DNA from: Spirochaetia bacterium
Lineage (GTDB): Bacteria > Spirochaetota > Spirochaetia > SZUA-6 > Bin103
Reading direction: 5' to 3'
Assembly (NCBI GenBank): GCA_965203905.1
Contig: CBDBDQ010000005.1
Span: forward strand, 2,720,001-2,784,000
Length of the DNA stretch: 64,000 nt
Shown one piece after another: positions 27,969 through 48,110 of this stretch. Position 1 is the first letter of the stretch; each line of letters begins with the position of its first letter. The position numbers were made by a program, and so were the translations under genes. The notes beneath the pieces are model-generated. The model had not been told where the DNA came from. It made no database searches and worked only from the letters and a program-made list of their open reading frames with translations.

Positions 27969-28046
27969 ACGTACGGATCGGAATTCCGGCGGTACTGCCT
28001 GCCCGCTCCCGGCTGACGTCGCTCGCTTGCCGTTCCGGTCGCGTCA

Positions 28047-28160
28047 CTATTCAGCCGCGCGGCCGATACCGCGCTTGGCGCCGCCGAACCGCCCGCTCTG
28101 CCCGCGCAGGCGCGGGTCGAGCAGGTCGCGGACCGCGTCGCCGGTGTGTACACGACCATC
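28047..28160 (-). pseudogene. 3' remnant of a dppC-like permease
   Basis: MVVY then frameshift to GDAVRDLLDPRLRGQSGRFGGAKRGIGRAAE*, matching the ends of the four intact dppC genes. Confidence 0.75.
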
Positions 28161-28245
28161 CCAGATTCAGACCGGATCATGCTGCGGGGGCCTTTGTCTT
28201 GACGCAAGGTGGCAGGCGATTCAGCATGCGTTTGGGGGGCGTACG

Positions 28246-29253: not shown

Positions 29254-29324
29254 CCCCGACCGGCCCGGCGCTGCCCGGTCCCGCGCGTCTGTGTGCGCTT
29301 CCGGCGGCGCGGTAAGATGAGGCG

Positions 29325-31079: not shown

Positions 31080-31108
31080 TTGACAGACTGCGACGGGCGG
31101 CGCATAGT
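31080..31108 (+). promoter_or_regulatory. Sigma70-type promoter, leader copy 1
   Basis: TTGACA-N17-CATAGT, conserved in three leaders. Confidence 0.7.
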
Positions 31109-31133
31109 AATTCATTCGGGCCGTTCCGGACTC

Positions 31134-31373
31134 ATGCCGACGAAGCCTCATCATAGCACTCAGCGCCCCCCCCAAAGGGGCGGGCCTCCAAGTATTTGTA
31201 CGAGAAGCATAAACGTACGGGCTGAGTGGGCGCGACGCCATGCGCGCCACGTCACAGCATGCCGCTGGCGTTGCCAGCTACTGCTACCGACACTTGCGCC
31301 GTCGCCGGCCACCGCTCCTCGCGGCGCTCCCGACCCAGGTGCGTGTACGGGTCCAAGGAGGTGCCGCATGTAG
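31134..31373 (+). CDS. Putative leader peptide/uORF copy 1 (79 aa, C8 tract at 31166-31173)
   Basis: MPTKPHHSTQRPP...; N-terminus conserved with 36592 and 45736. Confidence 0.45.
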   Translation: MPTKPHHSTQRPPQRGGPPSICTRSINVRAEWARRHARHVTACRWRCQLLLPTLAPSPATAPRGAPDPGACTGPRRCRM

Positions 31374-31402: not shown

Positions 31403-31480
31403 CACCCGGCGATTGCGGGTGATCTACGAGAGTGGGCGAGGGATGGGCAGTGGCATCAGCACTCTCGAGCATTCAGGAGT
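31403..31480 (+). promoter_or_regulatory. Structured 5' UTR element, copy 1
   Basis: CACCCG/CGGGTG hairpin, then CGAGAGTG (31427-34) / CACTCTCG (31460-67), then SD AGGAG. Confidence 0.55.
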
Positions 31481-31485
31481 CCAGG

Positions 31486-33276
31486 ATGCAATACGTAATC
31501 TTTCGCAAGTTCCTCGCGGTCCTGGTCGGGCTCGTCCTGGCCGCGACCGGCCTCTGGGCGGCTGCCGCACAAGAAGAGCCGGCAGCCGCTATGGAAAAGG
31601 AGATGGTGACCGACCCCACCACCGGCGAGATGGTCACCGCGCCGCAGTATGGCGGGACCTTGATCGCGGCCATGCCGAGCGACCCCGCCGGCTCCGACGC
31701 CTATTTCGGACATCCTACGATGAAGGCGATCGAGCAGGTGTGCGAGATGCTGGCCGGGATTGACTGGGGAGTAGACCGCGACGAGCATGGCTTGAACCGC
31801 ATATACCTCCCCGACATTGCCCTGACCGGAAGGCTGGCCGAACGCTGGGAGATGTCGGCGGACGGTCTCACCCTTACCTTCCACATCCGCCAGGGCGTTC
31901 ACTGGCACGACAAGGCGCCGATGAACGGCCGCGAGCTCACTGCCGAGGATGTCGAATACAACTGGCGCCGCTATACCGGTCTGGGCAGCGGCTTCACCGA
32001 ATTCAGCCCCAACATTGCCCAGTGGTCGGGACTCGACGACTTGGGAATAGCATCGATAACCGCCACCGACCGGTATACGGTCGTCTTTACCCTGGAGCAG
32101 CCCAACCTGCAGGTCCCTCGTGAAATCCTCTGGCCGTACCCAACGTGCATCATGCCGCCCGAGGTGATCGAGCAACACGGCGACGTTACCGACTGGACGA
32201 ACCTGGTCGGCACCGGACCCTTCGAGCTGACCGACTGGGTGGAGGGCAGCTCGCTGAACTTCAAGAAGAATCCCAACTACTGGGGATTTGACGAGAAATA
32301 CCCCGAGAACCGCTTGCCCTATGTTGACCGGTTGCAGGTGATGATCATGCCGGACGAGACCACACGTTTGGCGGCGCTGCGGACCGGCAAGGTCGATTAC
32401 CTGGGTTACCTGCTCTACGCGCACGTAAAGAGCGTCAACACGATAGAGCAGCTCCAGCAGAGCAACCCCGATCTCCAGGTGTTTCCGTTCTACCGAGAGG
32501 CCACCGGTATCGCTCTGTCCGCGCAGAACCCACCCTTCACCGACGTCAGGGTGCGCCACGCCATACAGATGGCACTGGACATCGACACAATAGCCAATAC
32601 CTACTTCAAGGGTTGGTCATTGGGGCCGCCTCAGGGATTCCTGGGGGGTGGGCTGGTCGGGTTTGTTCCCGCATTCGAAGACTGGCCGGAAGAGATCAAG
32701 CAATACTACACCTACGATCCGGCGGGGGCGGAAGCGTTGCTCGATGAGGCCGGCTATCCGCGCGGCGCCGACGGCATCCGCTTCAACGCTGGCATCGACT
32801 TCCGCGACTTGTATGATCTTGGCCATTACGAGTTGGCCGTAGCCCAGCTTGGCGAGATCGGCGTTGAGGTAGAGCTGAAGCCAATGGATACGGGTACTTG
32901 GGCCGGCCGTCTCCGGGAACATACCTATGATGGCATGACCTCGGAACACGTTGGGTTCGAGCACAGCATCGGCATGCTGGGACAGAACACCTCGGCCTCG
33001 ACGTGGAACCCCGCCGGTGTGCAAGACCCGGCGTATGACGCCCTGGCTGCAGCCGTCCTGTCCGCTGCTACCCAGGAGGAGCTGAGGGGGCGGGTTGAAG
33101 AGGCGTTCATGTACCTGACCGAGAACCATTGGCACGTATGGCTCGGGAGAGCGCCGCTGTTCTCCGTGGTTCAACCCTGGGTCATCGGCTACAACGGTGA
33201 AGTTGCGCAGGAGAGCGGGGTCATCCTGGGCCGCGTCTGGATTGACCAGGATATGAAAAAAGAGATGGGCTTCTAG
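31486..33276 (+). CDS. Family-5 ABC substrate-binding protein (cassette 1)
   Basis: VTDPTTGEMVTAPQYGG, RQGVHWHDKAPMNGRELTA, VGTGPF, LLDEAGYPRGADG. Confidence 0.9.
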   Translation: MQYVIFRKFLAVLVGLVLAATGLWAAAAQEEPAAAMEKEMVTDPTTGEMVTAPQYGGTLIAAMPSDPAGSDAYFGHPTMKAIEQVCEMLAGIDWGVDRDEHGLNRIYLPDIALTGRLAERWEMSADGLTLTFHIRQGVHWHDKAPMNGRELTAEDVEYNWRRYTGLGSGFTEFSPNIAQWSGLDDLGIASITATDRYTVVFTLEQPNLQVPREILWPYPTCIMPPEVIEQHGDVTDWTNLVGTGPFELTDWVEGSSLNFKKNPNYWGFDEKYPENRLPYVDRLQVMIMPDETTRLAALRTGKVDYLGYLLYAHVKSVNTIEQLQQSNPDLQVFPFYREATGIALSAQNPPFTDVRVRHAIQMALDIDTIANTYFKGWSLGPPQGFLGGGLVGFVPAFEDWPEEIKQYYTYDPAGAEALLDEAGYPRGADGIRFNAGIDFRDLYDLGHYELAVAQLGEIGVEVELKPMDTGTWAGRLREHTYDGMTSEHVGFEHSIGMLGQNTSASTWNPAGVQDPAYDALAAAVLSAATQEELRGRVEEAFMYLTENHWHVWLGRAPLFSVVQPWVIGYNGEVAQESGVILGRVWIDQDMKKEMGF

Positions 33277-33309
33277 GAAGCGCCAGCTCTACGGAAGAGT
33301 GGGTGTCAA

Positions 33310-33352
33310 GGGACCGGGAGGCTGTCGTTTGCGGACGCGCCTCCCGGCTCCC
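33310..33352 (+). terminator. Stem-loop between SBP and dppB
   Basis: GGGA-CCGGGAGGC...GCCTCCCGG-CTCCC; homologous to 38903-38946. Confidence 0.6.
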
Positions 33353-33384
33353 GCTGCCGGTAAACCAGCAATGACGAGTGTCAC

Positions 33385-34386
33385 ATGAGGGCGTACATCA
33401 TCCGGCGGTTGTTGCTGACCATCCCCACCCTGTTCCTATTGACCATCCTGGTCTTTCTCTCCGTTCGCTTTCTTCCCGGCGACGTCATAGACACCATGGT
33501 GTCCGAATCGTCGGTGTACGGGGACGTCATGGACCGTGCGGCGTTCGAGCGTATGCTGGGATTGGATGTGCCGGTATACGTGCAGTATGGACGCTGGATC
33601 GGCGTGCTCTCGACCCCTGACTGGCGTACCGGTGAGTCCCACTTCAGAGGTCTCCTGCAGGGCAGCCTCGGCCGCTCACTGGTGGGCGGCCGGTTGCCGG
33701 TGGAGCGGAAGATAGTCGGTCGATTGCCGGTGACCATCGAGCTCGGGGTCATGTCCATCATCCTCGGGCTGCTGATCGCGCTGCCGGTGGGCATCTACGC
33801 GGCGATTCGTCAGGACACGGCGGCCGACTACGCGGGTCGTTCGTTCGCCATCATCGGCCTGGCGACGCCCAACTTCTGGCTGGCGACCATGGTGATGATC
33901 TACCCGGTCGTCTGGTGGAGCTGGTCGCCACCGATGCAGTGGGTCAGGTTCACGGAAGACCCGCTGGAGAATCTGGGGGTGTTCATCATCCCCAGCCTGA
34001 TTGTGGGAACGGGCATGGCCGCTGCCACCATGCGGATGACGCGCACCATGATGCTGGAGGTGCTCAGGCAGGATTTTGTCAGGACCGCGTGGTCCAAGGG
34101 ACTGCGGGAGCGGGTCGTCGTCATGCGGCACGCCGTCAAGAATGCCCTGATCCCGGTGGTTACGCTGATCGGTCTGCAGTTGCCGATCGTGGTCGGCGGC
34201 GCCGTCATCATGGAGAACATCTTCAACCTGCCGGGACTGGGCCGGGTCATGGTGCTTGCTCTCAGTGAGCGAGACTACCCGGTGGTGTCGGGGATAAACC
34301 TGTTGTTCGCCGCCGCGGTCGTGGCGATCAATCTGCTGATCGATCTGCTCTATCCGTACCTGGACCCCAGGGTCCGCTATGCCTAG
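33385..34386 (+). CDS. DppB-like permease (cassette 1)
   Basis: MRAYIIRRLL, QDFVRTAWSKGL, LDPRVRY. Confidence 0.9.
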   Translation: MRAYIIRRLLLTIPTLFLLTILVFLSVRFLPGDVIDTMVSESSVYGDVMDRAAFERMLGLDVPVYVQYGRWIGVLSTPDWRTGESHFRGLLQGSLGRSLVGGRLPVERKIVGRLPVTIELGVMSIILGLLIALPVGIYAAIRQDTAADYAGRSFAIIGLATPNFWLATMVMIYPVVWWSWSPPMQWVRFTEDPLENLGVFIIPSLIVGTGMAAATMRMTRTMMLEVLRQDFVRTAWSKGLRERVVVMRHAVKNALIPVVTLIGLQLPIVVGGAVIMENIFNLPGLGRVMVLALSERDYPVVSGINLLFAAAVVAINLLIDLLYPYLDPRVRYA

Positions 34387-35314
34387 CAGTTCGAATACAG
34401 CCGGAGTTGCGCCACGGGCTGCCAGAGAACGGCAAAAGCCTGCTGCGTTCTTTGCCCGACTGTGGCGGGAGAAGCCACTGGGCAGCGCCTGCGGGATCAT
34501 CATACTGATACTGATTCTGGTCAGTATCCTGGCCGATGTTCTGGCTCCGTACGATCACATGGAACCACACCCGTCCGACATTCTGCAGGGCCCGTCAGCC
34601 AAGTATCTCCTGGGCACCGACTACGTGGGGCGGGACTTCTTGAGCCGCATCATCCACGGCGCCCGGCTGTCGTTGGCCGTCGGTCTGGCGGCGACCACGC
34701 TGAATGTTGTGGTCGCGGTGCTGATCGGCGGTACCTCTGGGTTCTTTGGCGGCAAGCTGGATCTGGCTGTGCAGCGATTCGTCGACGCCTGGATGGCGTT
34801 TCCCGGGCTGCTCCTGTTGCTGACCGTAATGTCGATCGTGGGGCGGGGCATGCTGCAGATCATCGTGGTCCTGGGGATAACGGGGGGCATCGTCGGCTCG
34901 AGAACGGTCAGAGGCGCCGTCATCGACATAAAGGAGAACACCTATTTCCACGCGGCACAGTCGATCGGCTCCGCCGGATGGCGAACCTTCATTCGCCACG
35001 TGCTGCCCAATATCGCGCCGGTGGTTATCGTCATATTCACCATCAACATCGGCGGTGTGATCATCAGTGAGGCGTCGTTGAGCTTTCTCGGCTTCGGTCT
35101 GCCGCCGAGCGTGCCGAGCTGGGGCGCCATGCTGAGCCGGGAAGGGCGCCAGTTCATGGAGATTGCCCCATGGCTGGCGCTCTGGCCAGGTCTGTGCCTG
35201 ACTGTCGTGGTGTACAGCCTGAACATGTTCGGCGACGCGCTGCGCGATCTGCTCGATCCCCGGCTGCACGGCGGCGCCGGCCGTCTCGACGCCCGCGGCT
35301 CATCTCCCGGCTGA
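34379..35314 (+). CDS. DppC-like permease (cassette 1)
   Basis: LGTDYVGRD, HVLPNI, GDALRDLLDPR. Confidence 0.9.
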   Translation: MPSSSNTAGVAPRAARERQKPAAFFARLWREKPLGSACGIIILILILVSILADVLAPYDHMEPHPSDILQGPSAKYLLGTDYVGRDFLSRIIHGARLSLAVGLAATTLNVVVAVLIGGTSGFFGGKLDLAVQRFVDAWMAFPGLLLLLTVMSIVGRGMLQIIVVLGITGGIVGSRTVRGAVIDIKENTYFHAAQSIGSAGWRTFIRHVLPNIAPVVIVIFTINIGGVIISEASLSFLGFGLPPSVPSWGAMLSREGRQFMEIAPWLALWPGLCLTVVVYSLNMFGDALRDLLDPRLHGGAGRLDARGSSPG

Positions 35315-35488
35315 CCCGTGGTCGATGGCCCGGGAGCCTGCGTTGCCGTTGAACGGCCCCTGGTACGCCGAGCGCCCGATAGGCGAGGGCCGGATTGCGA
35401 ATGTGCACTTCAAGACAGAGACCGCGCACGGCAAACCACCGTGGTGGTGCTCGCCGTTTCGTTCGCCTACGTGATGTAGCGGGCGAGG

Positions 35489-36457
35489 TCAGCCGCCAGA
35501 TGATCGGCGGAGCGCGGCAAGGAAATCGGCCTCATCGGCGCAGCCGAGGGCCGCTGTCAGCAGCGCCGCCTCCGACGCCGTGGCGAACGCCTCCGCATCC
35601 GCAGAGAAACCCTCCGACACCGCAATGCCCCGCGACTGCAGAATCTGGCGGACCATCCGTGCACGACCTTGCGCCAAGCCGCGCTCGAACCCCTGGCGCC
35701 GTTGCGAGCGCAGCAGCGGGTCGTCGTCCGGGCCGGTGCCTTCGCGCGCGCCGAGCGCCGCGGCAACCCGCTCCACGGCCGCGCTCGTTTGCGCTGACGG
35801 CACCGGTTCGTTCAGCGCCAGGTGAATCTCTTCGGCCTGCCAGCCGGGAAACGCCCGGCTCGCAGCCGCAACCCGGAACCGGCCACGCTCCAGCAGATGG
35901 ATCGTCAGCCCCGAGGGGCGCCGGTGCGGACGGCTCGGGGACGGCGCGTCCGGCACCTCCACCCACACTTCCGGGAATCCCCACGATTCGTACAGCGCGA
36001 GCTTGCCGCGGTGGACGTCGGTGGTGTGATCCACCTCCAGCACCACGTCGGGAAAGTCGTCCTCGCCCACCACCATGGCTGCGGGCCCCGGCTTGGCCCG
36101 CTCCGGATGCAGGTACACCGACTCGTCGGCCTGCATGATGCGCCGCGGTTCGCCGCCGGAGTCGCGCAGCAGCAGGTCCATCGAGCCGTACGATTCGATC
36201 GGCGAGCCGCGCACTCCCGCGATCCGCTCGGCCAGGCGCGTCACCAGGCGCGACGGCCGCTCGTGATAGGGAGTGGTGGGGTCGCAGATCCAGGCGGTCT
36301 CGGTGGCCGCATCCCAATACTCGAGCCGCCCCTCGAAGCGCTCGATCTCGGTGCGCGGCAGGTGCACCGGCTTGCAGCCGGGGAACGCCGGCGGCTGGGC
36401 GTGCCGGGGTTGGGCTGCCGCGTGGCGCCCGGATGGCGGTGCTTCGGTGCTGGCCAT
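35489..36457 (-). CDS. Uma2-family PD-(D/E)XK endonuclease
   Basis: QADESVY, PDVVLEVD, KLALYESWGFPEVW, SRAFPG. Confidence 0.85.
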   Translation of the reverse strand: MASTEAPPSGRHAAAQPRHAQPPAFPGCKPVHLPRTEIERFEGRLEYWDAATETAWICDPTTPYHERPSRLVTRLAERIAGVRGSPIESYGSMDLLLRDSGGEPRRIMQADESVYLHPERAKPGPAAMVVGEDDFPDVVLEVDHTTDVHRGKLALYESWGFPEVWVEVPDAPSPSRPHRRPSGLTIHLLERGRFRVAAASRAFPGWQAEEIHLALNEPVPSAQTSAAVERVAAALGAREGTGPDDDPLLRSQRRQGFERGLAQGRARMVRQILQSRGIAVSEGFSADAEAFATASEAALLTAALGCADEADFLAALRRSSGG

Positions 36458-36538
36458 GACGCCATGGTAGGCCATCTCGCGCGCGCATGCAAACCGAACG
36501 TTCCAGATCCGCCAGAGCCGGGAAGCGTAAACGTGCAA

Positions 36539-36567
36539 TTGACAGTGCGCGGCGGGCGGTGCACAGT
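36539..36567 (+). promoter_or_regulatory. Sigma70-type promoter, leader copy 2
   Basis: TTGACA-N17-CACAGT. Confidence 0.7.
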
Positions 36568-36591
36568 AGAGCGATCAGGGACTCTTGCCTC

Positions 36592-36966
36592 ATGCCGACG
36601 ACGCTCGACCATAGCACTCAGCGCTGTCACCAGTTGACGCAGTTGGTTACGTCCCCCCCCCCCCCCCCCCCCGGCAACTCTTTATACAATAATCCATTAA
36701 CACTAACCGCCCCGGCTGATCGTCCCGTACGCGACCTCGCGTTCGCCGTCGCTTTCACCACCGCCGTAGCTATGGCTGGCGCCGCCTCGATCCATCGCCG
36801 AACCGGCATGCGGGCCGCCCGCCACGCGCAGCCCACCCGACAAATACGGCAAGCACCCGGACCAGGGCCTACGGGCCTACCTACAGAAATGGAGGTGCAA
36901 AATGATACTCAAAGAACCGCACCACGCGCGCGGCCCGAGTTCATAACGCTCATGCCGCGCGCGTGA
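36592..36966 (+). CDS. Putative leader peptide/uORF copy 2 (124 aa) containing the C20 tract
   Basis: MPTTLDHSTQRCHQLTQLVTSPPPPPPG...LTAPADRPVRD. Confidence 0.5.
   Translation: MPTTLDHSTQRCHQLTQLVTSPPPPPPGNSLYNNPLTLTAPADRPVRDLAFAVAFTTAVAMAGAASIHRRTGMRAARHAQPTRQIRQAPGPGPTGLPTEMEVQNDTQRTAPRARPEFITLMPRA
36653..36672 (+). repeat. C20 homopolymer (slipped-strand tract)
   Basis: 20 consecutive C; the only run of this length seen in the window. Confidence 0.9.
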
Positions 36967-36995
36967 CCACCAGGGATTGCCACCGCTGTCTGGAC

Positions 36996-37075
36996 GCCTG
37001 CGTTGCGGGCGCGAGAGTGGCAGGGAAAAGGCAACTCGCTCGGAGAGCACTCTCAGAATCTCAGATATGGGAGAG
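36996..37075 (+). promoter_or_regulatory. Structured 5' UTR element, copy 2
   Basis: GCCTGC-GTT-GCGGGC, GAGAGTG (37013-19) / CACTCTC (37048-54), SD GGGAGAG. Confidence 0.55.
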
Positions 37076-37081
37076 ATCAGT

Positions 37082-38893
37082 ATGATTCTTCCCAGAATAA
37101 GAATCGCACACACTTTCGTGTTTGTGCTCGTGTTCGCCCTGACTGCCACCGGTGTCTGGGCCAGTCCGGCCGGCGAAGAGGAGCCGGCAGCCGCTGCCGA
37201 CAAGAAGTACGTGACCGACCCCACCACCGGCAAGGTGGTGGTGGCGCCACAGTACGGCGGGATACTAACCGCTGGGCATACTCAGGCCGGTAGTACTGGG
37301 GCTCCTAATGACCCCTATTTCGGCAATCCGTGGGGCCCAGGGGCGGCCGTCAATGAGAGGCTTGGTATCGGGAACTGGGGAATAGATAGAGACGTATTTG
37401 ACTTCAAAGCGGTCTACCTACCTCTGTCTGCCCTAACGGGGAGGCTGGCTGAAAGCTGGGATATTTCTCCGGACGGCCTCACCTATACCTTCAACATCCG
37501 CCAGGGCGTTAACTGGCAGAACAAGGCACCGATGAACGGGAGAGAATTCACTGCGGATGATGTCGTATTCAACTTTCACCGCTATCTGGGTCTGGGCGAC
37601 TTCACCGAAGCCGGACCTAGCACCTGGGTTGGCGCTGCCAACTTCATCTCCATACCATTCGAATCGGTAACGGCCACCGATAAATACACGGTTGTGATGA
37701 AGCTGAAGGAGCCAAATCTCACTGCGCTGGAGCTTATCCTCAACGACCGTGCTGTTGCAATATTGCCCCCCGAGGTAATCGAGCAATACGGCGACATGCA
37801 GGATTGGAGGAACGTGGTCGGCACGGGACCCTTTATGGTGACTGATGTCGTCGAGGAGAGCAGCATCACCTGGACCAAGAATCCTGACTACTGGGGCTAT
37901 GACGAGAAGTACCCGCAGAACCGCTTGCCCTACGTTGACCAGTTTCGGCGGCTGGTTATTCCAGAGGAAGGAACAATGATGGCGGCACTACGCTCAGGCA
38001 AGCTTGATTTCAGAATGTTTGCCCCTTCAGATATCGACTCGATAGAGAGCCTGCAGCGGACCAACCCCGAAGTCGAGGTGCACCCGATCTATTTTCGGTC
38101 GAGTGATTCTTTTGCTCCTAACCATCGCGTGCCGCCCTTTGACGACATCAACGTGCGTCGCGCCCTGCAGATGGCGCTGGACAACGAGACCGTTGCGGGT
38201 ACGTACTGGAAGGGTTGGGCAGATCCGACACCTCACGGGCTGGTAGGGTTGCAAGGGTATTTCATCCCCTTCGAGGAATGGGACGAAGAGGTCAAGCAAT
38301 ACTACCGGTATGACCCGGAAGCTGCCGAGAAGCTCCTTGATGAGGCTGGGTATCCGCGCGGCGCCGACGGCATTAGATTCAAGGCCGCCCTGAATTATAC
38401 GGAATCGGCAAGCTTGGATTTTGCAGAAATAGCTTCCGCCTACTGGGCTGAGATTGGCGTCGATTTTGAGATTGCGCCGGGTTCCAGCTACGCCGAATAT
38501 ACCGAGAGAATAGGCTCGGGTACCTGGGAAGGCATGCACAGTCAAATTGCGGGCGCCGCTTATGCCCCTCTCCTGATGGCAAGCTGGTATCACTCGGACG
38601 GGGCATTGAACCGCGGCGGATCCCAGTGGCCTGAGATGGACGCCATGGTTGACGCCGTCCGAGCCGCTACTACCAACGAGGAGCAGAAGATGCTGATAAA
38701 AGAGCTGGATATGTACGCGATAGAGAAGCACTGGCTGATATATGCTCCCAAAACTGCGTTTATTCATTATGCCCAGCCGTGGGTCATAGGCTATAGCGGT
38801 GAATTTCCAAATGCTTTGGGCCAGTCAGAAACCTATACCGTCTTTGCCCGCCTCTGGATTGATAGTGAGCTGAAGGAGGCAATGGGTTATTAG
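37082..38893 (+). CDS. Family-5 ABC substrate-binding protein (cassette 2)
   Basis: YVTDPTTGKVVVAPQYGG, KAPMNGREFTA, VGTGPF, LWIDSELKEAMGY. Confidence 0.9.
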   Translation: MILPRIRIAHTFVFVLVFALTATGVWASPAGEEEPAAAADKKYVTDPTTGKVVVAPQYGGILTAGHTQAGSTGAPNDPYFGNPWGPGAAVNERLGIGNWGIDRDVFDFKAVYLPLSALTGRLAESWDISPDGLTYTFNIRQGVNWQNKAPMNGREFTADDVVFNFHRYLGLGDFTEAGPSTWVGAANFISIPFESVTATDKYTVVMKLKEPNLTALELILNDRAVAILPPEVIEQYGDMQDWRNVVGTGPFMVTDVVEESSITWTKNPDYWGYDEKYPQNRLPYVDQFRRLVIPEEGTMMAALRSGKLDFRMFAPSDIDSIESLQRTNPEVEVHPIYFRSSDSFAPNHRVPPFDDINVRRALQMALDNETVAGTYWKGWADPTPHGLVGLQGYFIPFEEWDEEVKQYYRYDPEAAEKLLDEAGYPRGADGIRFKAALNYTESASLDFAEIASAYWAEIGVDFEIAPGSSYAEYTERIGSGTWEGMHSQIAGAAYAPLLMASWYHSDGALNRGGSQWPEMDAMVDAVRAATTNEEQKMLIKELDMYAIEKHWLIYAPKTAFIHYAQPWVIGYSGEFPNALGQSETYTVFARLWIDSELKEAMGY

Positions 38894-38902
38894 AGAAAGA
38901 AA

Positions 38903-38946
38903 GGGAGCTGGGAGGCTGTCGCCTGCAGGCGCGCTTCCCAGCTCCC
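38903..38946 (+). terminator. Stem-loop between SBP and dppB
   Basis: GGGAGCTGGGAGGC...GCTTCCCAGCTCCC. Confidence 0.65.
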
Positions 38947-38949
38947 AAC

Positions 38950-38988
38950 GAGATTGCCACGCCTCCATGAATCCAGGCTCGCAATGAC
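38950..38988. repeat. Partial REP-like element
   Basis: GAGATTGCCACG...CTCGCAATGAC resembles a widespread bacterial intergenic palindromic repeat (from recall, not searched). Confidence 0.4.
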
Positions 38989-39003
38989 GGGGAGTAATGT
39001 GAC

Positions 39004-40011
39004 ATGAGAGCCTATCTCATCAGGAGGTTATTGCTCATAATTCCCACCTTGTTTATCTTGAGCATCCTGGTCTTTCTCTCGGTCCGCTTCATCCCGGGCG
39101 ATGTAATAGACACAATGGCGGCTAGGATGGCAGAGACGGGGGCGCTGGCATTCAAGATTGATCGTGAAGCTCTAGAGCAAATGCTGGGATTAGACGTGCC
39201 TGTCTACGTGCAGTATGGACGCTGGACAGGGGTGTCGCCAACCCCCGACTTTGTTACCAAGGAGTCTCACTTCAACGGTCTCCTCCAGGGCAGCCTTGGT
39301 GAATCACTGATGAGCTCTTTTACGGTAGAAGAGAAGATAATGGGCAGATTGCCAGTAACCATTCAGCTTGGTGTCATGGCAATCGTAATTGGGCTCGTGA
39401 TAGCGCTTCCGGTCGGCATCTACTCGGCGATGCGCCAGGATACCGCCGCCGACTACCTGGGGCGCTCGATCGCCATCCTCGGCCTGGCAACTCCCAACTT
39501 CTGGCTGGGACTTTTGGTCGTGCTCTACCCCGCCATCTGGTGGGGCTGGTCGCCGCCGATGGAGCTGATTCCTCTTGCCGAAGACCCGCTGGGGAATCTC
39601 CGGATGTTTCTCATTCCCAGCTTGATTGTGGGCACGGCCTCGGCTGCCGCCACCATGCGGATGACGCGCACCATGATGCTGGAGGTGCTCAGGCAAGACT
39701 ATATCAGGACCGCCTGGGCCAAGGGTCTCAGGGAGCGGGTGGTCGTCATGCGGCACGCCGTCAAGAACGCACTCATCCCGGTGGTTACCCTGATCGGCCT
39801 GCAGTTGCCGATCCTGATCGGTGGCTCGGTCATCATGGAGAACATATTCAACCTGCCGGGGTTGGGTCGTCTCATGGTGGTTGCGCTGAAAGATCGAGAC
39901 TATCCGGTGGTCTCCGGGGTCAACCTGTTCTTCGCCACCGCGGTGGTGCTGTTCAATCTCCTGATCGACCTGCTCTATTCCTGGCTGGACCCGAGGGTGC
40001 GGTATGAATGA
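39004..40011 (+). CDS. DppB-like permease (cassette 2)
   Basis: MRAYLIRRLL, QDYIRTAWAKGL. Confidence 0.9.
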   Translation: MRAYLIRRLLLIIPTLFILSILVFLSVRFIPGDVIDTMAARMAETGALAFKIDREALEQMLGLDVPVYVQYGRWTGVSPTPDFVTKESHFNGLLQGSLGESLMSSFTVEEKIMGRLPVTIQLGVMAIVIGLVIALPVGIYSAMRQDTAADYLGRSIAILGLATPNFWLGLLVVLYPAIWWGWSPPMELIPLAEDPLGNLRMFLIPSLIVGTASAAATMRMTRTMMLEVLRQDYIRTAWAKGLRERVVVMRHAVKNALIPVVTLIGLQLPILIGGSVIMENIFNLPGLGRLMVVALKDRDYPVVSGVNLFFATAVVLFNLLIDLLYSWLDPRVRYE

Positions 40012-40891
40012 GGCGCGCGGCCAGTTTGCCGATTTCTTCGGCAGGTTGTGGCGGCAGAAGCCCCTGGGCATCGCCAGCGGGATCGTCATCTTGATCCTGA
40101 TTCTGTTGGCGATCTTCGCCGATGCTCTGGCCCCCTATCCCGTCGATCAACTGAACCTGGCAGAAAGGCTGCAGGGCTCATCGACCCGCCATCTGCTGGG
40201 GACCGACCAGTTGGGCCGCGACCAGTTGAGCCGGCTGCTGGTCGGGGCACGGATCTCGCTGGTCGTTGGTCTGGCGGCGACCACGCTGAACGTGGTGGTC
40301 GCCACCCTGATCGGTGGCACCTCCGGATTCCTCGGGGGCAAGCTGGACCTGGCCGTGCAGCGGTTCGTCGATGCCTGGATGGCGTTCCCGGGGCTGCTGC
40401 TGTTGCTCACGATCATGTCGGTTGCGGGGCAGGGTCTGCCACAGATCATCGTGGTGCTGGGGATCGCCGGTGGCGTGGGCGGCTCGCGCGTGGTCAGAGG
40501 CGCGGTGGTGGCCACCAAGGAGAACGATTTTTTTCTGGCCGCCCGGGCGGTCGGCGCGCCGACGCGACAGGTCCTGGTGCGCCACGTCCTGCCCAACATC
40601 GTCGCGCCGCTGATCATCGTCTTCAGCATCAACGTCGGCGGCGTCATTCTGGCCGAGGCGAGCTTGAGCTTTCTCGGGTTCGGGCTGCCCGTCAGTGTCC
40701 CCAGCTGGGGAGGGATGCTCAGCCGGGAGGGGCGGCGGTTCATGGAGCAGGCGCCGTGGCTGGCGCTGTGGCCCGGGCTGTGCCTGACGATTGTGGTGTA
40801 CAGCTTCAACATGTTGGGTGATGCGATGCGGGACCTGCTCGATCCGCGGCTGCGCGGCGGGGGGCGTCTGGCTGCCGGCGGCGCCACGTAG
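40004..40891 (+). CDS. DppC-like permease (cassette 2)
   Basis: LGTDQLGRD, GDAMRDLLDPR. Confidence 0.9.
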   Translation: MNEARGQFADFFGRLWRQKPLGIASGIVILILILLAIFADALAPYPVDQLNLAERLQGSSTRHLLGTDQLGRDQLSRLLVGARISLVVGLAATTLNVVVATLIGGTSGFLGGKLDLAVQRFVDAWMAFPGLLLLLTIMSVAGQGLPQIIVVLGIAGGVGGSRVVRGAVVATKENDFFLAARAVGAPTRQVLVRHVLPNIVAPLIIVFSINVGGVILAEASLSFLGFGLPVSVPSWGGMLSREGRRFMEQAPWLALWPGLCLTIVVYSFNMLGDAMRDLLDPRLRGGGRLAAGGAT

Positions 40892-41329
40892 CCAGCGCGA
40901 CGCACCCCATGCGGCTCCCTAGTCGTGATGTCCCGCAGGTGGGTCTTGCCCGAGATGTTTTGCGCTCGATCACTCCGCCGCCGGCCGTCTTCGGCTGCGC
41001 GGCCCCGCCCTGCCGACCCGTGCGTGTGCGGCCGACCGGCAACCCGCGGGTCACGCCGATTACTTTGAGAGGCGCTCGGCTGAGTATTGATTTCCGCACT
41101 GGTCTCCTTACGCTGACCTGACACTGATGGCACATGGGCCAGCCCATTGCGGCACAGCCTGAAGACATACCGATGCGGCGCTACCCGCGCCTCGCTGGGA
41201 TGTCCGCCGTGAGGCAGACGTGGGCGGTGAACGGCCTGCGGCCGGCCACATCGCCGGCGAATGACGCCTCTGGTAGGGGCGATGCGGCGCCCTGAGGGGG
41301 CTCTCGGCTGCCGCGGCTGCCCAAATCTG

Positions 41330-41500
41330 GGGACGCGCCTGGATCGGAGTGGACCGCGGCGAGCTTGCAGGCCGAGCGGATCCTGAATGAGAAGCGTCGC
41401 CATCGCGAAAGCTCATTCGACGCCCATCCGACCCCCGGAGCGGGTCTCACTCACCTGGATCTGCGCTACTTCGAGGACGAATACCTACCGCGGGCGATTG
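41330..41500 (+). pseudogene. Fragment of an AlbA/Schlafen-domain ATP-binding regulator-like gene
   Basis: GRAWIGV then frameshift to ERILNEKRRHR..FDAHP....LDLRYFEDEYLPRA; no start and no C-terminal part. Confidence 0.45.
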
Positions 41501-41604
41501 TGGATGAACACTGGTTCGACGGCCCGAACAGCCGTTCCGGCGTGACGCTACTCTCCCAATCGGTGTATGCTGTGATCATCCGGGGTGGATGAGGTGATGA
41601 CGGC

Positions 41605-41976
41605 ATGAGCGGCGACACCATCGCGGTGCTGGGCGTCGGAGTGACGCTGCTGGGGGCGATCCTGACGTTCGGCTTCGCGGTGCTGGGCGCGCACCGCACG
41701 ACGCAGGCTATCCTGAACGCCCGCATGGACCGCATGGATCAGCGCATGGGCCGCATGGATCAGCGCATGGACCGCATGGATCAACGCTTCGACCGCGTGG
41801 AAGGGCTGTTGAACGATCTGCGGCGAGACGTGACGGATATCGACCGCCGCCTGTCGCGCATCGAAGGAGCGGTGTTGGGGCCGTGGCGCCCCGAGCCGCC
41901 TACAGAGCCGCCGCCGGAGCGGGAAGCGCGCCAGGAGCCGGTGCCGGCGGCCGGCACCGGCAGCCCCCGGCAATAG
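41605..41976 (+). CDS. Small membrane-anchored coiled-coil protein
   Basis: N-terminal TM helix, RMDRMDQ x3 (21-bp repeats at 41722-41784), RLSRIEG; GAGGTG RBS. Confidence 0.75.
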   Translation: MSGDTIAVLGVGVTLLGAILTFGFAVLGAHRTTQAILNARMDRMDQRMGRMDQRMDRMDQRFDRVEGLLNDLRRDVTDIDRRLSRIEGAVLGPWRPEPPTEPPPEREARQEPVPAAGTGSPRQ

Positions 41977-42052
41977 ACCGCAAGGGAGCACGCATGGCGG
42001 CGGACGACACCGCCGCCGCCGAACCGATTTTTCCGCATCACCGGGCGCACCG

Positions 42053-42150
42053 GCCCTGACAGGGCAGTTGGCGGAAAGCTGGTCGCAGCTCGACCCGCTG
42101 ACGTCTTTCGTCCAAGTTCGCCAGGGCGTTCACTGGCTGATAAGCCCCCA
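42053..42150 (+). pseudogene. About 100-bp internal fragment of a family-5 SBP gene
   Basis: ALTGQLAESWSQLDPLTSFVQVRQGVHW then frameshift to DKPP; matches SBP cassettes 1-3. Confidence 0.8.
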
Positions 42151-42230
42151 GTATTAAGGTTAAGGGATATGCGGATACGACACCTTGTGGGCTGCCAGAG
42201 CCGCGTGGCGCTGCGCTCGCTGTGACGGGA

Positions 42231-43643
42231 TCAGGCCATTCCGGCTGGAGCGTCGTGCGGCTGAGCGAGCAGGTCTTCGAGGAAGCACATGGTCTTCAGT
42301 ACGCCAACGTCGTCGCGCTGGTTACCGATGATCTGCAGGCCGATCGGCAGGCCGAGTCCGGTCTTGCCGACGCACACGGTACCCGCCGGGTTGCGCGTCA
42401 TGTTGATACCGTACGTGAAAGCGACCCAGCCGTCCGTCTCTTTGCCGTTGATCGTGCCGGAGGCCGAACCGGCCTTGGGAGTCTGGCCGCACGTGGTCGG
42501 CGTGAGGATGAAGTCTCCTGCCTGGAACGCGTCGACCAGCTTGGCGTTCAGATAGTGACAGGCATCGAGCGCCCGGGCGTAATCGACTCCGCTGACGTTT
42601 TCCATGCCGTGCTCGATCTGAGGTTTGAGCCCCTCGTCGATCTGGTCCCATTGCGGTGTGCCGCGCAGATCACCCTGAACTCGCGCACGGGATGCGGACC
42701 AGAACTGGTACCATGGTCCGCGGGGATCCTCTTCCCAGATGGTCTCACGCATGACCACGTCGACACCTGCGCCTCGGAGAGCCGAAATGGCCGCTTCGCA
42801 CTGCTGCATGATCTCCGAGTCGACCGTGGCGAATCCCATCGTCGGCGACCAGACGACGCGCCGCGGCCTGTTGTGCCGGTTCAGTGCGGTACGCCAGGAT
42901 TCGGCCGGCCGGGGCATCGAAAAGATGTCGGTCGGTTCGTGCTCCAGGACGGCATCCAGCGTATAGGCGACGTCACGAACCCGAAGTGCCATCGGCCCCT
43001 TGACGCTCAGGATCCCCGATCCGGGTGGGGACTTGCCACCGGCCGGCACCCGCCCCTGGCTTGGCTTGATGCCGCTGAATCCGCAGACCGACGCAGGAAT
43101 GCGAATGGAACCTCCGCCATCCGATCCGGTGCCCAGCGGGATCATGCCCGAGGCGAGCGCCGCCGCCGTTCCACCAGATGAACCTCCCGGACTGTAATCC
43201 GGGTTCCAGGGATTGCGCGTCGCCCCGAATGGCCGGTTGTCGGTCACTCCCTTGAAACCGAACTCGGGTGTGTTCGTCTTGCCCAGGATCACGCAACCAG
43301 CCTCGCGCAGCAGCGCGACCAGAACCGAGTCGTGTTGTGCGGGTGCGTCGTTGGCGTGCAGTTCGGCGCCGTAGGTCGTGACGAATCCGCGCGCATCCTC
43401 GAGATCCTTGACGCCTATCGGAATGCCGGCCAGCGGCCCTACCGGATCACCGTGCTTCAGGCGCGCATCGATCGCGTCGGCTTGCGCCAATGCATCCTCG
43501 AAGTTCACCGCGCAGAACGCGTTCAGCCGCGGGTTCAACGACTCGATGTTGCCGATTGCGGCTTGCGTCAAGTCACGAGCTGAGACCCGTCGCGAAAACA
43601 CGGCACCGACGAGTTGCTCAACCGTCGTCTCACGAAAGTCCAT
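42231..43643 (-). CDS. Amidase signature family protein
   Basis: GVKDL, GKTNTPEFG, PGGSSGG, GSDGGGSIRIPAS. Confidence 0.92.
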   Translation of the reverse strand: MDFRETTVEQLVGAVFSRRVSARDLTQAAIGNIESLNPRLNAFCAVNFEDALAQADAIDARLKHGDPVGPLAGIPIGVKDLEDARGFVTTYGAELHANDAPAQHDSVLVALLREAGCVILGKTNTPEFGFKGVTDNRPFGATRNPWNPDYSPGGSSGGTAAALASGMIPLGTGSDGGGSIRIPASVCGFSGIKPSQGRVPAGGKSPPGSGILSVKGPMALRVRDVAYTLDAVLEHEPTDIFSMPRPAESWRTALNRHNRPRRVVWSPTMGFATVDSEIMQQCEAAISALRGAGVDVVMRETIWEEDPRGPWYQFWSASRARVQGDLRGTPQWDQIDEGLKPQIEHGMENVSGVDYARALDACHYLNAKLVDAFQAGDFILTPTTCGQTPKAGSASGTINGKETDGWVAFTYGINMTRNPAGTVCVGKTGLGLPIGLQIIGNQRDDVGVLKTMCFLEDLLAQPHDAPAGMA

Positions 43644-43717
43644 GCAGGAGGAACCTCCGGCTTCCTCGCGGCTTTGTCAACGCACGTGGCGCCCACGGCG
43701 CCCCACGCGCCCAGGAC

Positions 43718-43843
43718 CTACCGGAACGCGGCGTAGTCCGGGCCGAGGAAGCCGGCGGCGATCTTGAGCTTAAGTACTTCGTCGGTACCCTCGTAGATGC
43801 GGCACACGCGCACGTCCTTGAGGTGGCGGCTGGGCCGGTAGAT
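43718..43843 (-). pseudogene. C-terminal remnant of an acyl-CoA dehydrogenase
   Basis: IYRPSRHLKDVRVCRIYEGTDEVLKLKIAAGFLGPDYAAFR*. Confidence 0.75.
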
Positions 43844-43850
43844 CGGGGGG

Positions 43851-43891
43851 AAACCACCGTGGTGGTGATGTAGCGGGCGAGATCAGCCGCC
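43851..43891 (-). pseudogene. 3' end and downstream flank of a second Uma2 copy
   Basis: Matches 35433-35497 with an internal deletion between GTG repeats. Confidence 0.75.
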
Positions 43892-44315
43892 GTGGACAGG
43901 GAAGAGGTTTATCGAACCGCCGTCTTGCGTCAGCCGAAACGATCCGCAGTGATTTACACGGGAGAGATTCCTGATGGAACGGCCGTTGTCTTGTGAACCC
44001 GGTGTCGAGCGGTTACGCGTTTGATCCGCTCCAGGGGCTTGTCGTAGTTCAAGCCGAGGTATTCGGCCGGCGGGGGAGTATCGTGCTGCAGCTCGCCCTG
44101 GACACCGGCGCTACTGGAACCATGATCAACGTCGGACCGCTTGCAGCCGTAGGGTATGACCCGTCGTTGCAGACTGAACGGATCCAGGTCACGACTGGAA
44201 GCGGCGTAGAATAGAATATGCTCCGAGGATCTCTGTCGTCCGCATGAAGGCGATTGGTCACGAGCGGACGAACTTTCCGGTCCTCGCTCATACTCTGCCT
44301 CCAAGCACGAGCGTC
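43892..44315 (+). pseudogene. Broken small-protein plus retroviral-like aspartyl protease pair
   Basis: DREEVYR...YTGEIPDGTAVVL* then LALDTGAT motif; TAGAA duplication near 44207-44216 creates stop/frameshift; 3' end truncated. Confidence 0.7.
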
Positions 44316-44408
44316 CTCGCCCACCACCATGGCCGCGGCCTCGGCAGCCTGACCTGCGCCGGGTGCAGGTACACCGACTCGTCGGCCTGCATGATGCGCC
44401 GCGGTTCC
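44312..44408 (-). pseudogene. Internal Uma2 fragment
   Basis: EPRRIMQADESVYLHP, nearly identical to 36058-36151. Confidence 0.85.
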
Positions 44409-44556
44409 CCGCTATGGAACAACTCATCGTTGAACGTGCATGCGCTCGACGGCTGCGCCGGCATCACGCAGGTGCGGGTCGCAACAGCAAGGCGGCCGAG
44501 CTTCCAACATCTCATCGTTTAGAAGCGTCGGCGAACCATACCCCGTAGAACAGGGT

Positions 44557-45540
44557 ATGGCCGGCGAGATCTCCAAGCCCCACGATCACCTGTTTCGCTC
44601 CGTATTCGGAGAAGACAAGGAAGCCGAGGCGGCCAGCCTGCTGCAGGCCTGCCTGCCGCCGGCGGTCAGCCGCGAATTGCTGTGGTCGAGCCTCAAGTGG
44701 CAGTCTGTGAGCTTCATCGACGACCGCCTGCGCGACAGCGAATCGGACCTGCTGTACGCGATCCGTCGCACCGCCGACGGCGCCTCGGCGTGGCTGTACG
44801 TGCTGCTGGAGCACCAGTCGACCCCGGACCCGTGGTTGCGGCTGCGGCTGCTGAAGTACAGCATCCGGATCTGGGAACGCGATCGGCAGCGGCATCCGCA
44901 GGAGCAACAGTTGCGCCCGATCGTGCCGCTGGTGCTGTATCAGGGCGGGCGCGTGTGGCGTGAAGCGCGTGAGTTCGCGGAGCTGTTTTCCGAGGTGGTG
45001 CGGGATTGGCCGGGAGTGCCGCGCTACGCGCACCTGTTGATCGATCAGACGCAGGCCGGACCGGAGGAGTTGCGCGGGGAGCTGCTCGGTCGCATCGCGC
45101 AACTGGCGATGATGGCGGCGTACCGGGCGAGCTGGCCGGTGTTGCAGCGGCTGGTGCCGCTGCTGGCGGAGTTGGCGCAGGCAGGCGGCAGCGAAGACCT
45201 GCAGCGGATCGTGGTGTACATTGCGGCCACGACACGGGAGCCGAAGCGCTGGCACCGATTCGCGGAGGCAGTCCGTCGCCAGGTGCCGGGAGGTGGAGAA
45301 CTGATGAACAAGACCGAGGAGATGATCGAGATATACGGCGACATGAGGGAGCGTGAGGGCCGCCAGGAAGGCCGCCAGGAAGGCGAGTTACGCGGCAAGG
45401 TGCAGACCATCGAGGGTCTCGTGGGACGCGATGTCCCCTGGTCCATCATCGAAGCGGCCACCGGAATCGACCAGGCCACCTTCGACCGGCTCAAGCGCCA
45501 ACTCGACACCGCTGACGGCAGCGCCACCCACTCCAACTAA
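44557..45540 (+). CDS. Rpn/YhgA-like recombination-promoting nuclease (Transposase_31)
   Basis: PHDHLFR, SFIDDRL...SDLLY, LLEHQSTPD, PIVPLVLY, EGRQEGRQEG. Confidence 0.9.
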   Translation: MAGEISKPHDHLFRSVFGEDKEAEAASLLQACLPPAVSRELLWSSLKWQSVSFIDDRLRDSESDLLYAIRRTADGASAWLYVLLEHQSTPDPWLRLRLLKYSIRIWERDRQRHPQEQQLRPIVPLVLYQGGRVWREAREFAELFSEVVRDWPGVPRYAHLLIDQTQAGPEELRGELLGRIAQLAMMAAYRASWPVLQRLVPLLAELAQAGGSEDLQRIVVYIAATTREPKRWHRFAEAVRRQVPGGGELMNKTEEMIEIYGDMREREGRQEGRQEGELRGKVQTIEGLVGRDVPWSIIEAATGIDQATFDRLKRQLDTADGSATHSN

Positions 45541-45566
45541 ACCACGCCCCCGCTGTCCCTGGCTTC

Positions 45567-45650
45567 CGGATGGCGGTGCTTCGGTGCCGGCGATGGCGCC
45601 AGCGCACCCCATCTCGCGCGCGTATTGAAACTGAACGTTCCAGATCAGCC
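45567..45650 (-). pseudogene. 5' remnant and upstream region of the second Uma2 copy
   Basis: CCGGATGGCGGTGCTTCGGTGC...CCATCTCGCGCGC...GAACGTTCCAGATC matches 36429-36510. Confidence 0.8.
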
Positions 45651-45682
45651 GGGAGCCGGCAACGCATCGAAAAAACGTGAGA

Positions 45683-45711
45683 TTGACAGTGCACGGCGGG
45701 CGGTGCATAGT
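45683..45711 (+). promoter_or_regulatory. Sigma70-type promoter, leader copy 3
   Basis: TTGACA-N17-CATAGT. Confidence 0.7.
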
Positions 45712-45735
45712 AGAGCGCTCAGGGATTCTTGGCTC

Positions 45736-45981
45736 ATGCCGACGACGCTCGACCATAGCACTCAGCGCTGTCACCCAGTTGACGCAGTTGGTTACTTCGC
45801 CCCCACCCACCCGGCCCCCACTTTTTCGAACCGAGAACAACTAACCGCTCCGGCTGATCGCCCCGTACGCGACCCCGCGCACGCCGTCGCGTTCACTACC
45901 GCCGTACCTGTCGGTGGCGCCGGCTACGGAAAACGGCAGTGCAAGGTGGTACTCAAAGAACCGCACGCACGCGCGGCGTGA
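45736..45981 (+). CDS. Putative leader peptide/uORF copy 3 (81 aa), interrupted C-tract at 45800-45819
   Basis: MPTTLDHSTQRCHP...LTAPADRPVRD. Confidence 0.5.
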   Translation: MPTTLDHSTQRCHPVDAVGYFAPTHPAPTFSNREQLTAPADRPVRDPAHAVAFTTAVPVGGAGYGKRQCKVVLKEPHARAA

Positions 45982-46042
45982 GCCGGGGTGAACCCGACGA
46001 GTTACACGCCGCGCGCTTCTGAGAACCTGACTCAAACTGGCA

Positions 46043-46118
46043 GCCCGCGTTGCGGCCCGAGAGTAGCCAGGAGGCGGCAATCCGCTGCGCAATACTCTCG
46101 AAAATCTACATACGGAGT
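46043..46118 (+). promoter_or_regulatory. Structured 5' UTR element, copy 3
   Basis: CCGC-GTT-GCGG, CGAGAGTA (46058-65) / TACTCTCG (46093-100), SD GGAG. Confidence 0.55.
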
Positions 46119-47917: not shown

Positions 47918-48110
47918 GGCACTCGCCGTAGGCGATCTGCAGTGGATCCCGCTCTTGGGTGGGGTCCACGAATCCGACTACGTCGGCACGGTCACTCCGT
48001 GACAGGAAGACCATGAACGGCGATGCGCAGGTATCGCCCGCCGGTCAGCTTTTTTGGACCAGGCGCCGGGAGCCTTGAGCTTCCCGGCGCCGCCCGTTTT
48101 ACACGAAGAT

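Follow-up and report, generated by a model that had tools for sequence, protein, structure and literature searches.

The 64,000-nucleotide stretch of a Spirochaetia genome analysed here (contig CBDBDQ010000005.1, positions 2,720,001–2,784,000; hereafter the window) contains three importer operons, each comprising a gene for a substrate-binding protein (SBP) of ~600 amino acids (aa) from the SBP_bac_5 family (PF00496), followed by two BPD_transp_1 permease genes. Ahead of each SBP gene lies a stem that a first-pass annotation had read as a covarying RNA helix. Comparison of the copies indicates that these stems probably belong, as helix P3, to a cis-acting RNA of ~190–220 nucleotides (nt), confined to one lineage, that forms the 5′ leader of ABC-importer operons in a strongly expanded SBP_bac_5 family. 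In the alignment of copies, conservation begins ~150 nt upstream of the stem. From 5′ to 3′, the leader consists of a Shine–Dalgarno (SD) sequence with a tiny upstream open reading frame (uORF), hairpin P1 (in types A and B of the four distinguishable subtypes, A–D), a linker, hairpin P2, helix P3 and a spacer with the SD of the gene. The window copies are composed as follows, in window coordinates.

Copy 1 (type C)
31355-63 and 31368-73, + strand: SD AAGGAGGTG and start-stop uORF ATG TAG
31373-94, + strand: linker, with GACTC at 31373-77 and TTCTCGC at 31388-94, the latter complementary (with two G-U pairs) to GCGAGGG at 31436-42 inside P3 and thus a candidate pseudoknot strand with putative pairing
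31403-21, + strand: hairpin P2, CACCCG/CGGGTG, with TTGCGG in the loop
31427-34 and 31460-67, + strand: helix P3, 8 base pairs (bp), CGAGAGTG/CACTCTCG, enclosing a purine-rich interior
31476-80, + strand: gene SD GGAGT, followed by the ATG at 31486
31486-33276, + strand: SBP_bac_5 gene
33385-35314, + strand: BPD_transp_1 permease pair of operon 1

Copy 2 (type B)
36891-36946, + strand: SD GGAGGT and 14-codon uORF MILKEPHHARGPSS (36902-46) with stop codon TAA
36924-64, + strand: hairpin P1, a GC-rich stem of 11 perfect bp (36924-34 with 36954-64), into which the uORF extends with its 3′ part and stop codon
36970-37011, + strand: linker, with ATTGCC complementary to GGCAA inside P3, and hairpin P2 (36995-37011)
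37013-19 and 37048-54, + strand: helix P3, GAGAGTG/CACTCTC
37069-75, + strand: gene SD GGGAGAG, followed by the ATG at 37082
37082-38893, + strand: SBP_bac_5 gene
39004-40891, + strand: BPD_transp_1 permease pair of operon 2

Copy 3 (type A)
45946-81, + strand: uORF of 11 codons, VVLKEPHARAA, with GTG start and TGA stop
45970-46015, + strand: hairpin P1, a perfect 11-bp stem (45970-80 with 46005-15), the top of whose 5′ arm is overlapped by the uORF stop codon
46028-46057, + strand: linker, with TGACTC at 46028-33 and CTGGC at 46037-41 (complementary to GCCAG at 46066-70), and hairpin P2 with its core CCGC/GCGG at 46045-55
46058-65 and 46093-100, + strand: helix P3, CGAGAGTA/TACTCTCG
46073-86, + strand: hairpin P3a inside P3
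46109-26, + strand: hairpin P4, CATACG/CGTATG, with the gene SD GGAG in the loop and the ATG at 46124 paired
46124-47917, + strand: SBP_bac_5 gene
48054-49986, + strand: BPD_transp_1 permease pair of operon 3

The three stems were recovered exactly at the positions first reported, and on recheck every pair of arms was perfectly complementary. Also confirmed were the small TTGCGG-containing hairpin ahead of each stem, the SD strings (GGAGT at 31476-80 and 46114-18; GGGAGAG at 37069-75) and the exchange of a G-C for an A-T pair in copy 3, the same pair varying across 64 distinct copies. The first-pass annotation had thereby captured P2 and P3, that is, only the last third of the element, and had missed the uORF, P1 and the size of the family. 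The composite pattern TTGCGG-N1-14-GAGAGT-N20-40-ACTCTC was found three times in the window, whereas 100 dinucleotide shuffles never produced it (mean 0.00, maximum 0). None of the three operons includes a gene for an ATP-binding cassette (ABC) ATPase, as none of the 150 PF00005 matches listed, of 151 genome-wide, falls inside the window. Since the operons encode a binding protein and two permeases only, the ATPases must be encoded elsewhere, and they are presumably common to several operons.

Type A, the commonest subtype, has a P1 with a lower stem of ~12 GC-rich bp and an apical hairpin, a UGACUC...CUGGC linker, a 7-bp P2 with a G-UU loop and an 8-bp P3 (CGAGAGUA/UACUCUCG) around P3a. In its spacer, the AUG is frequently paired within hairpin P4 (CAUACG/CGUAUG). 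Type B resembles type A in its 5′ half, has GAGAGUG/CACUCUC as P3 without P3a, and carries in its linker the motif AUUGCC, complementary to GGCAA of the P3 interior. Types C and D are devoid of P1 and begin with a start-stop AUG UAG or a uORF of 3–8 codons, followed by GACUC, a CCCUCGC-like strand complementary to GCGAGGG in P3, and then P2 and P3, the latter being GAGAGC/GCUCUC in type D. The most conserved positions over all subtypes are the P3 core GAGAG/CUCUC (97–100%) and the P2 loop with its 3′ edge, G-UU-GC (95–98%). The P3 interior is purine-rich (AGGG...GGCAR), and the spacer between P3 and the gene start, which holds the gene SD, spans 20–35 nt. Upstream of the uORF SD, a small GCCGG...CCGGC hairpin is often found at a distance of 5–90 nt (e.g., at loci L013, L015, L020 and L029), which might lie at the 5′ boundary of the transcript or act as terminator of the preceding gene. 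A reading of the P3 interior as a sigma-54 promoter, based on GG...GC spacing judged by eye, was rejected because copy 3 lacks the GG.

Searches of the whole 8-Mb genome with the exact composite pattern yielded 13 occurrences, and none with the reversed control pattern. Five congeners contained it 1–41 times each, so that 6 of 61 genomes matched, and no other genus did among the 22 sampled. For the 3′ domain, a covariance model (R1) built from 41 seed sequences, with 89 positions and 22 pairs, gave 36 matches in the genome of the window and 105, 69, 69, 41, 8, 3 and 1 in seven congeners, the 105 belonging to the 4.9-Mb genome of congener G005. R1 had no match across 13 genomes of the sister genus, and over the order 8 of 92 genomes matched, all of them in one of 27 genera. 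As R1 and the hidden Markov models miss some type-C and type-D leaders (e.g., L061), these copy numbers are lower bounds.

The association with SBP genes was close to exclusive. Searching the genome of the window with nhmmer returned 39 distinct sites, 37 of which lie at most 60 nt upstream of an SBP_bac_5-type open reading frame (ORF) on the same strand; 35 of these ORFs are intact, and two are broken off early, at 81 and 117 aa. The remaining two sites are 5′ halves only, one of them followed by a reverse-transcriptase ORF. The two genes with early stops (L007, G000:C5 near 5140558, and a second at G000:C5 near 7736684) are each followed by the remainder of the gene and are likely pseudogenes or sequencing errors. 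At locus L101 (G000:C5:4844700-4849400; ~235-2031), the leader is cut right after the linker GACTCAGA, and a reverse-transcriptase ORF (RVT_1, E 1e-34) starts ~580 nt beyond the cut. Group II intron domains (RF02005; 180 and 105 bits) are also found beside leaders, at L013:1725-1944 and L020:1203-1348, and retroelements appear to insert at or near leaders.

The SBP profile detected 183 ORFs of at least 400 aa at E ≤ 1e-10 in the genome of the window. Close paralogues of the SBP (E ≤ 1e-60) number at least 147 in G005, one each in G009 and G010, and none in G002. Leader counts rank as SBP counts, and G009 and G010, with one SBP each, have no leader. Leader-headed importer operons account for approximately a tenth of the genome of one congener. 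Loci from a low-GC metagenome-assembled genome and from Dehalococcoidia that encode related SBPs gave no R1 match. In the low-GC lineage (L046, L051, L052, L055, L059 and L060), a near-identical block that includes a GC-rich island is located ~250 nt upstream of the SBP start; it may represent an unrelated leader or belong to an adjacent gene. Metagenome contigs gave no match when scanned for an exact 22-mer, and no conclusion was drawn from this.

Comparison of the 64-kb window with Rfam 15 at gathering scores yielded no match, which leaves the leader as a cis-regulatory RNA candidate outside Rfam. At E ≤ 5, five leader loci (15,178 bases) gave six matches, none of them on a leader: two were the group II intron domains adjacent to leaders, and four were at chance level. 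The element is a new, very-high-copy, genus-restricted family of leader RNAs with a uORF.

An enlarged alignment supported the proposal that the leader of each SBP gene contains the stem as a covarying RNA helix. In 64 distinct copies, aligned under guidance of the model and hence fitted to it, 89.5% of cells formed standard pairs, compared with 29–49% when the 3′ partners were slid by 1–3 columns, and 20 of 27 pairs had changed on both sides in at least one copy. None of 500 shuffles reached any of five structure measures. A seed alignment based on MAFFT agreed, with 87.5% of cells paired and 17 of 27 pairs changed on both sides. Within P3, the pair that is exchanged in copy 3 was A-U in 48 of the 64 copies, G-C in 8, G-U in 5 and unpaired in 3; its neighbour was U-A in 57, C-G in 3, U-G in 1 and unpaired in 3; and the outermost pair was C-G in 27, U-A in 7, U-G in 1 and unpaired in 29. 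The five core pairs of P3 were nearly fixed, with at most two departures. The C-G variant of the neighbouring pair stems from the type-D loci L044, L054 and L067, which were collected by protein homology rather than by pattern and are therefore less subject to selection bias. The nested helices P2 and P3a covaried too. Altogether, 108 cells held G-U and 57 A-C, an excess that favours pairing in the sense RNA strand.

RNAalifold recovered P1, P2, P3 and P3a from 30 type-A leaders with a covariation term of −0.2. The type-A copies are too alike to display much covariation, which appeared once types B–D were added. Folded singly, the window copies had unremarkable z-scores of −0.9 to −1.6, the single-sequence fold not being diagnostic. 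A conserved fold with covariation, of the kind expected of a riboswitch, was found in paralogous copies around an invariant core.

Sequence identity was subsequently compared over 14 full-length leaders of the genome of the window (91 pairs). Median identity fell from 0.81 in the leader to 0.66 in the coding DNA and 0.47 in the protein, and the leader was more conserved than the coding DNA in all 91 pairs. The 200 nt upstream of the uORF had an identity of 0.59. Downstream, the values were 0.77 for coding bases 1–90 and 0.75 for the next 90, which encode the signal peptide and N-terminal linker, and 0.62–0.66 for the rest. For 18 of the 29 leaders of this genome, the nearest relative was found in the genome of another species, even with those genomes only partly sampled, which argues that the conservation did not arise by gene conversion or homogenisation within the genome.

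The uORF varies as a translated ORF would, judging from its sequence. An NTG start was present in 67 of 71 distinct type-A and type-B leaders (ATG 47, GTG 10, CTG 6 and TTG 4). Over codons 2–6 (I-L-K-E-P), non-consensus cells at the first, second and third codon positions numbered 15, 17 and 46, respectively, and a tally by codon table gave 35 synonymous and 32 non-synonymous changes, compared with ~22% synonymous (10/45) for random single changes. The product in types A and B is M-I-L-K-E-P plus 0–8 residues. Among 65 parsed uORFs, 45 had 11 codons (typically MILKEPHARAA), 8 had 14, and 5 stopped right after the proline (TAG); the stop codon was TGA in 56, TAG in 6 and TAA in 3. It is usually located 12–14 nt into the 5′ arm of P1, where two leaders have TAA in place of the usual TGA, and a ribosome finishing the uORF must therefore open P1. 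MILKEP was not found in types C and D, which have start-stop elements or unrelated peptides of 3–8 residues. What is common to all subtypes is a strong ribosome-binding site (RBS) and a very short ORF, not a particular peptide. In the dominant peptide MILKEPHARAA, no single amino acid has a run of codons longer than two, so that runs of regulatory codons are lacking. The short ORF with an SD, a start codon and apparently codon-like variation is what a leader-peptide attenuator would be expected to contain.

P1 was considered as an intrinsic terminator and rejected for most copies, as at least four U within 8 nt were present in only 14 of 71 and at most two in 47 of 71. A terminator scan predicted no + strand terminator in the leaders, including the region after P3. 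On the minus strand, the scan gave terminator-like hits at 45980-45964 and 36930-36918, which are simply the uORF and the beginning of P1 in reverse complement.

Taken on its anatomy, its conservation and its exclusive link to SBP genes, the element is quite likely a cis-acting regulatory leader RNA in the general sense. As to how it would work, we favour an effect after transcription start, on translation initiation of the SBP or on the fate of the mRNA. One signal common to all paralogues would trigger the leader. As ~40–100 transporters with diverged binding proteins share it, a global signal, with nutrient status and translational status as candidates, is more probable than the individual substrates. 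Ribosome traffic on the uORF would then reshape P1 and the linker and, as a consequence, the fold of P2 and P3; a ligand or protein reading the invariant P2 loop and P3 core may be an additional input. A bolder and rather improbable form of this idea is an RNA switch of a new class, in which occupancy of the minimal uORF, from a bare start-stop to the 11-codon MILKEPHARAA, sets a pseudoknotted P2/P3 fold, possibly with a small ligand, and which would act post-transcriptionally as the one master control of ~40 to >100 ABC importers.

Several further observations are consistent with a regulatory leader. In every subtype, complementarity to the P3 interior is present in the 39 nt that precede P2, via different sequences (CUGGC:GCCAG in type A, AUUGCC:GGCAAU in type B and CCCUCGC:GCGAGGG in types C and D), which makes a pseudoknot possible. 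In 30 of 58 leaders, the spacer at the gene start folded better than shuffled sequences (z < −1.64); the AUG was fully paired in 26 of 58, and a compensatory variant of P4, CAUAGG/CCUAUG, was found in another copy. Weak evidence is added by contigs of four metatranscriptome libraries, two of them labelled sponge metagenomes, which cover leader and gene at 90–99% likeness; some reach upstream of the uORF SD. Most are 90–95% alike and thus derive from paralogues or relatives.

Other observations weigh against the regulatory reading or its proposed mechanism. With regard to structure, the shuffle controls overstate significance, as the copies are paralogues; the P3 core, the P2 loop and the P1 stem barely vary, so most of the covariation comes from comparing subtypes; and P1 is supported by stability (96% of cells paired), not by covariation. 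The candidate pseudoknot was moderately above chance, with a mean z of −1.2 and p ≤ 0.05 in 17 of 63 leaders. With regard to mechanism, when the uORF end was blocked as if covered by a ribosome, the predicted unpaired probability of the gene SD barely shifted, from 0.54 to 0.57, rising in 13 and falling in 4 of 55 leaders. U-rich tails after P1 are few (14 of 71), and P4 is missing in about half of the copies, whose start regions are open and A-rich. As types C and D lack MILKEP, it may be unimportant which peptide is encoded. The first 90 coding nt are nearly as conserved as the leader, which means that the 5′ module may have other causes. Finally, the contigs of the RNA libraries cannot prove transcription, nor can they show transcript starts, ends, strand, level or linkage of leader and SBP on one mRNA.

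Attenuators of pyrBI, trp and his and the arrest-peptide leaders of ermC and tnaC are 5′ leaders controlled by a leader peptide. The present element resembles such systems in having a short upstream ORF with its own SD and with its end inside a strong hairpin that the ribosome must melt; its peptide core, MILKEP, is conserved within types A and B. Unlike the trp, his and pyrBI attenuators, it has neither tandem regulatory codons nor a canonical terminator, and types C and D lack P1. A further difference from leader-peptide systems is that ~110 nt of additional conserved structure (linker, P2 and P3) separate P1 from the gene. The peptide is replaced in types C and D, and modelled occupancy leaves the predicted accessibility of the gene SD almost unchanged. 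A further arrest-peptide leader that has been described is toiL (PMC12121999).

Start-stop uORFs with a regulatory role have been described in eukaryotes (10.1101/2021.07.26.453809; PMC13338717). Type C, including copy 1, is similar in combining a strong SD with ATG TAG, on which a ribosome would bind and could not elongate. For upstream ribosome-binding sites in Sinorhizobium, the proposed occlusion requires start codons 3–25 nt apart (PMC13285730). This differs from the situation here, where the starts of copy 1 are ~115 nt apart (31368, 31486) with structured RNA in between.

Instead of a uORF-driven switch, P2/P3 may be the aptamer of a metabolite riboswitch that senses a global nutrient-status metabolite, with the uORF and P1 as accessories, a reading that we consider conceivable and rather improbable. 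The P2 loop and the P3 core are 95–100% identical over four divergent subtypes, the purine-rich interior AGGG...GGCAR is conserved within covarying helices that match no known family, and each subtype has a linker of its own that complements the P3 interior, a feature of pseudoknotted aptamers. With pseudoknotted riboswitches, the leader has in common a multi-helix domain in the 5′ untranslated region with an invariant loop, covarying stems and a possible pseudoknot; with translational riboswitches, a domain that adjoins the RBS of a transporter gene. However, no expression platform is evident, since there is no terminator after P3, the anti-SD pairing is weak and P4 is present in approximately half of the copies. 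A single ligand for ~100 transporters with diverged binding proteins would moreover be unusual, and none can be named. The leader also departs from riboswitches in lacking an Rfam match and in reaching up to 105 copies per genome, all before paralogues of one gene family.

It is unlikely that the leader instead serves as the docking site of a trans-acting factor, an RNA-binding protein or a small RNA, through which the paralogous operons are co-regulated. Conservation of the stems in sequence and not just in structure (GAGAG/CUCUC and the P2 loop) would fit sequence-specific recognition, and up to ~100 identical sites per genome would make a regulon. Leaders bound by CsrA/RsmA carry GGA motifs in hairpin loops that overlap the SD, and comparable motifs occur here, as AGGGA in the P3 interior and GGAG in the P4 loop at the RBS. 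However, type D has AGGGG in place of the GGA motif, and a search for CsrA (PF02599) returned no match in the 98.7%-complete genome, whereas three control genomes matched. No candidate factor was identified, and a search for ANTAR was uninformative, as its control matched nothing.

Very doubtful is the mechanism originally suggested, namely a two-state fold in which the 3′ arm of P3 pairs either with the 5′ arm, leaving the RBS free, or with the gene SD, hiding it. Complementarity of 5–7 nt between the 3′ arm and the SD does exist in the three window copies, and the 5′ arm GAGAG itself looks SD-like. However, this complementarity is no stronger than that of a shuffled arm: over 58 leaders, the best duplex of the 3′ arm with the SD region (17 nt before the start) averaged −4.3 kcal/mol, compared with −3.4 kcal/mol for permuted arms. 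It surpassed 95% of the permutations in only one leader and was −3.0 kcal/mol or weaker in 12. The 3′ arm does not change between copies, whereas the SD sequences do. Values of −7.4 to −7.6 kcal/mol were reached only in the subtype with a GGGAGAG-type SD, which includes copy 2. In predicted minimum-free-energy folds of two type-A leaders, P3 was kept with or without a block at the uORF end; in those of the type-B window copy, it did not form, blocked or unblocked. The toggle is not the mechanism in most copies and fits at best a type-B minority.

We regard it as very improbable that the leader has no regulatory role and was simply copied with the genes as a 5′ module of leader and signal-peptide coding sequence, P1 being a leftover terminator-like hairpin. 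Coding bases 1–180 are indeed conserved as well (0.75–0.77), and leader number tracks SBP expansion (147 SBPs and 105 leaders in G005; one and none in G009 and G010). Passive copying nevertheless leaves unexplained why the leader exceeds the coding DNA in 91 of 91 pairs though the proteins are 47% identical, why the nearest leader is in another species in 18 of 29 cases, and why changes are compensatory or wobble in the helices and biased to third positions in the uORF. Scarcely credible is a DNA operator or recombination site, which the perfect 7–8-bp inverted repeat with invariant arms might suggest, given arms 25–28 bp apart at variable spacing, the 108 G-U against 57 A-C cells, the fixed orientation and distance to the start codon, and the covariation of P2 and P3a.

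Literature searches, which were not aimed specifically at the leader, returned nothing that describes the element, and its absence from print is not claimed. If functional, a leader RNA of this kind would rank among the most repeated cis-regulatory RNAs known in a bacterial genome, with 36 copies here and 105 in the 4.9-Mb relative, all of them for a single expanded family of transporters. Its hundreds of paralogous copies in four subtypes constitute a natural mutational series for the cooperation between a uORF and a structured RNA, including bacterial start-stop uORFs, whose function has been little explored. The family is a well-defined candidate for a new Rfam entry, and it points to coordination of a very large nutrient-uptake repertoire in an uncultured lineage.

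With regard to the surroundings, the genes between the operons (27913-30911; 35489-36538, − strand; 42231-43643, − strand; and 44440-45540) encode a TauD-family dioxygenase, an AAA-ATPase_like/PDDEXK_9 protein, a weak Uma2 nuclease-like ORF, an amidase and a Transposase_31 (YhgA-like) protein, so that nuclease- or transposase-like genes flank the repeated operons. A further block shared by the three operons is found ~230–360 nt upstream of P3, at 31080-31166, 36589-36624 and 45683-45768. In copies 1 and 3, it contains an identical promoter-like TTGACA-17-CATAGT, and its motifs occur in only 5–6 copies genome-wide; the block may be a shared promoter of the local operon cluster.

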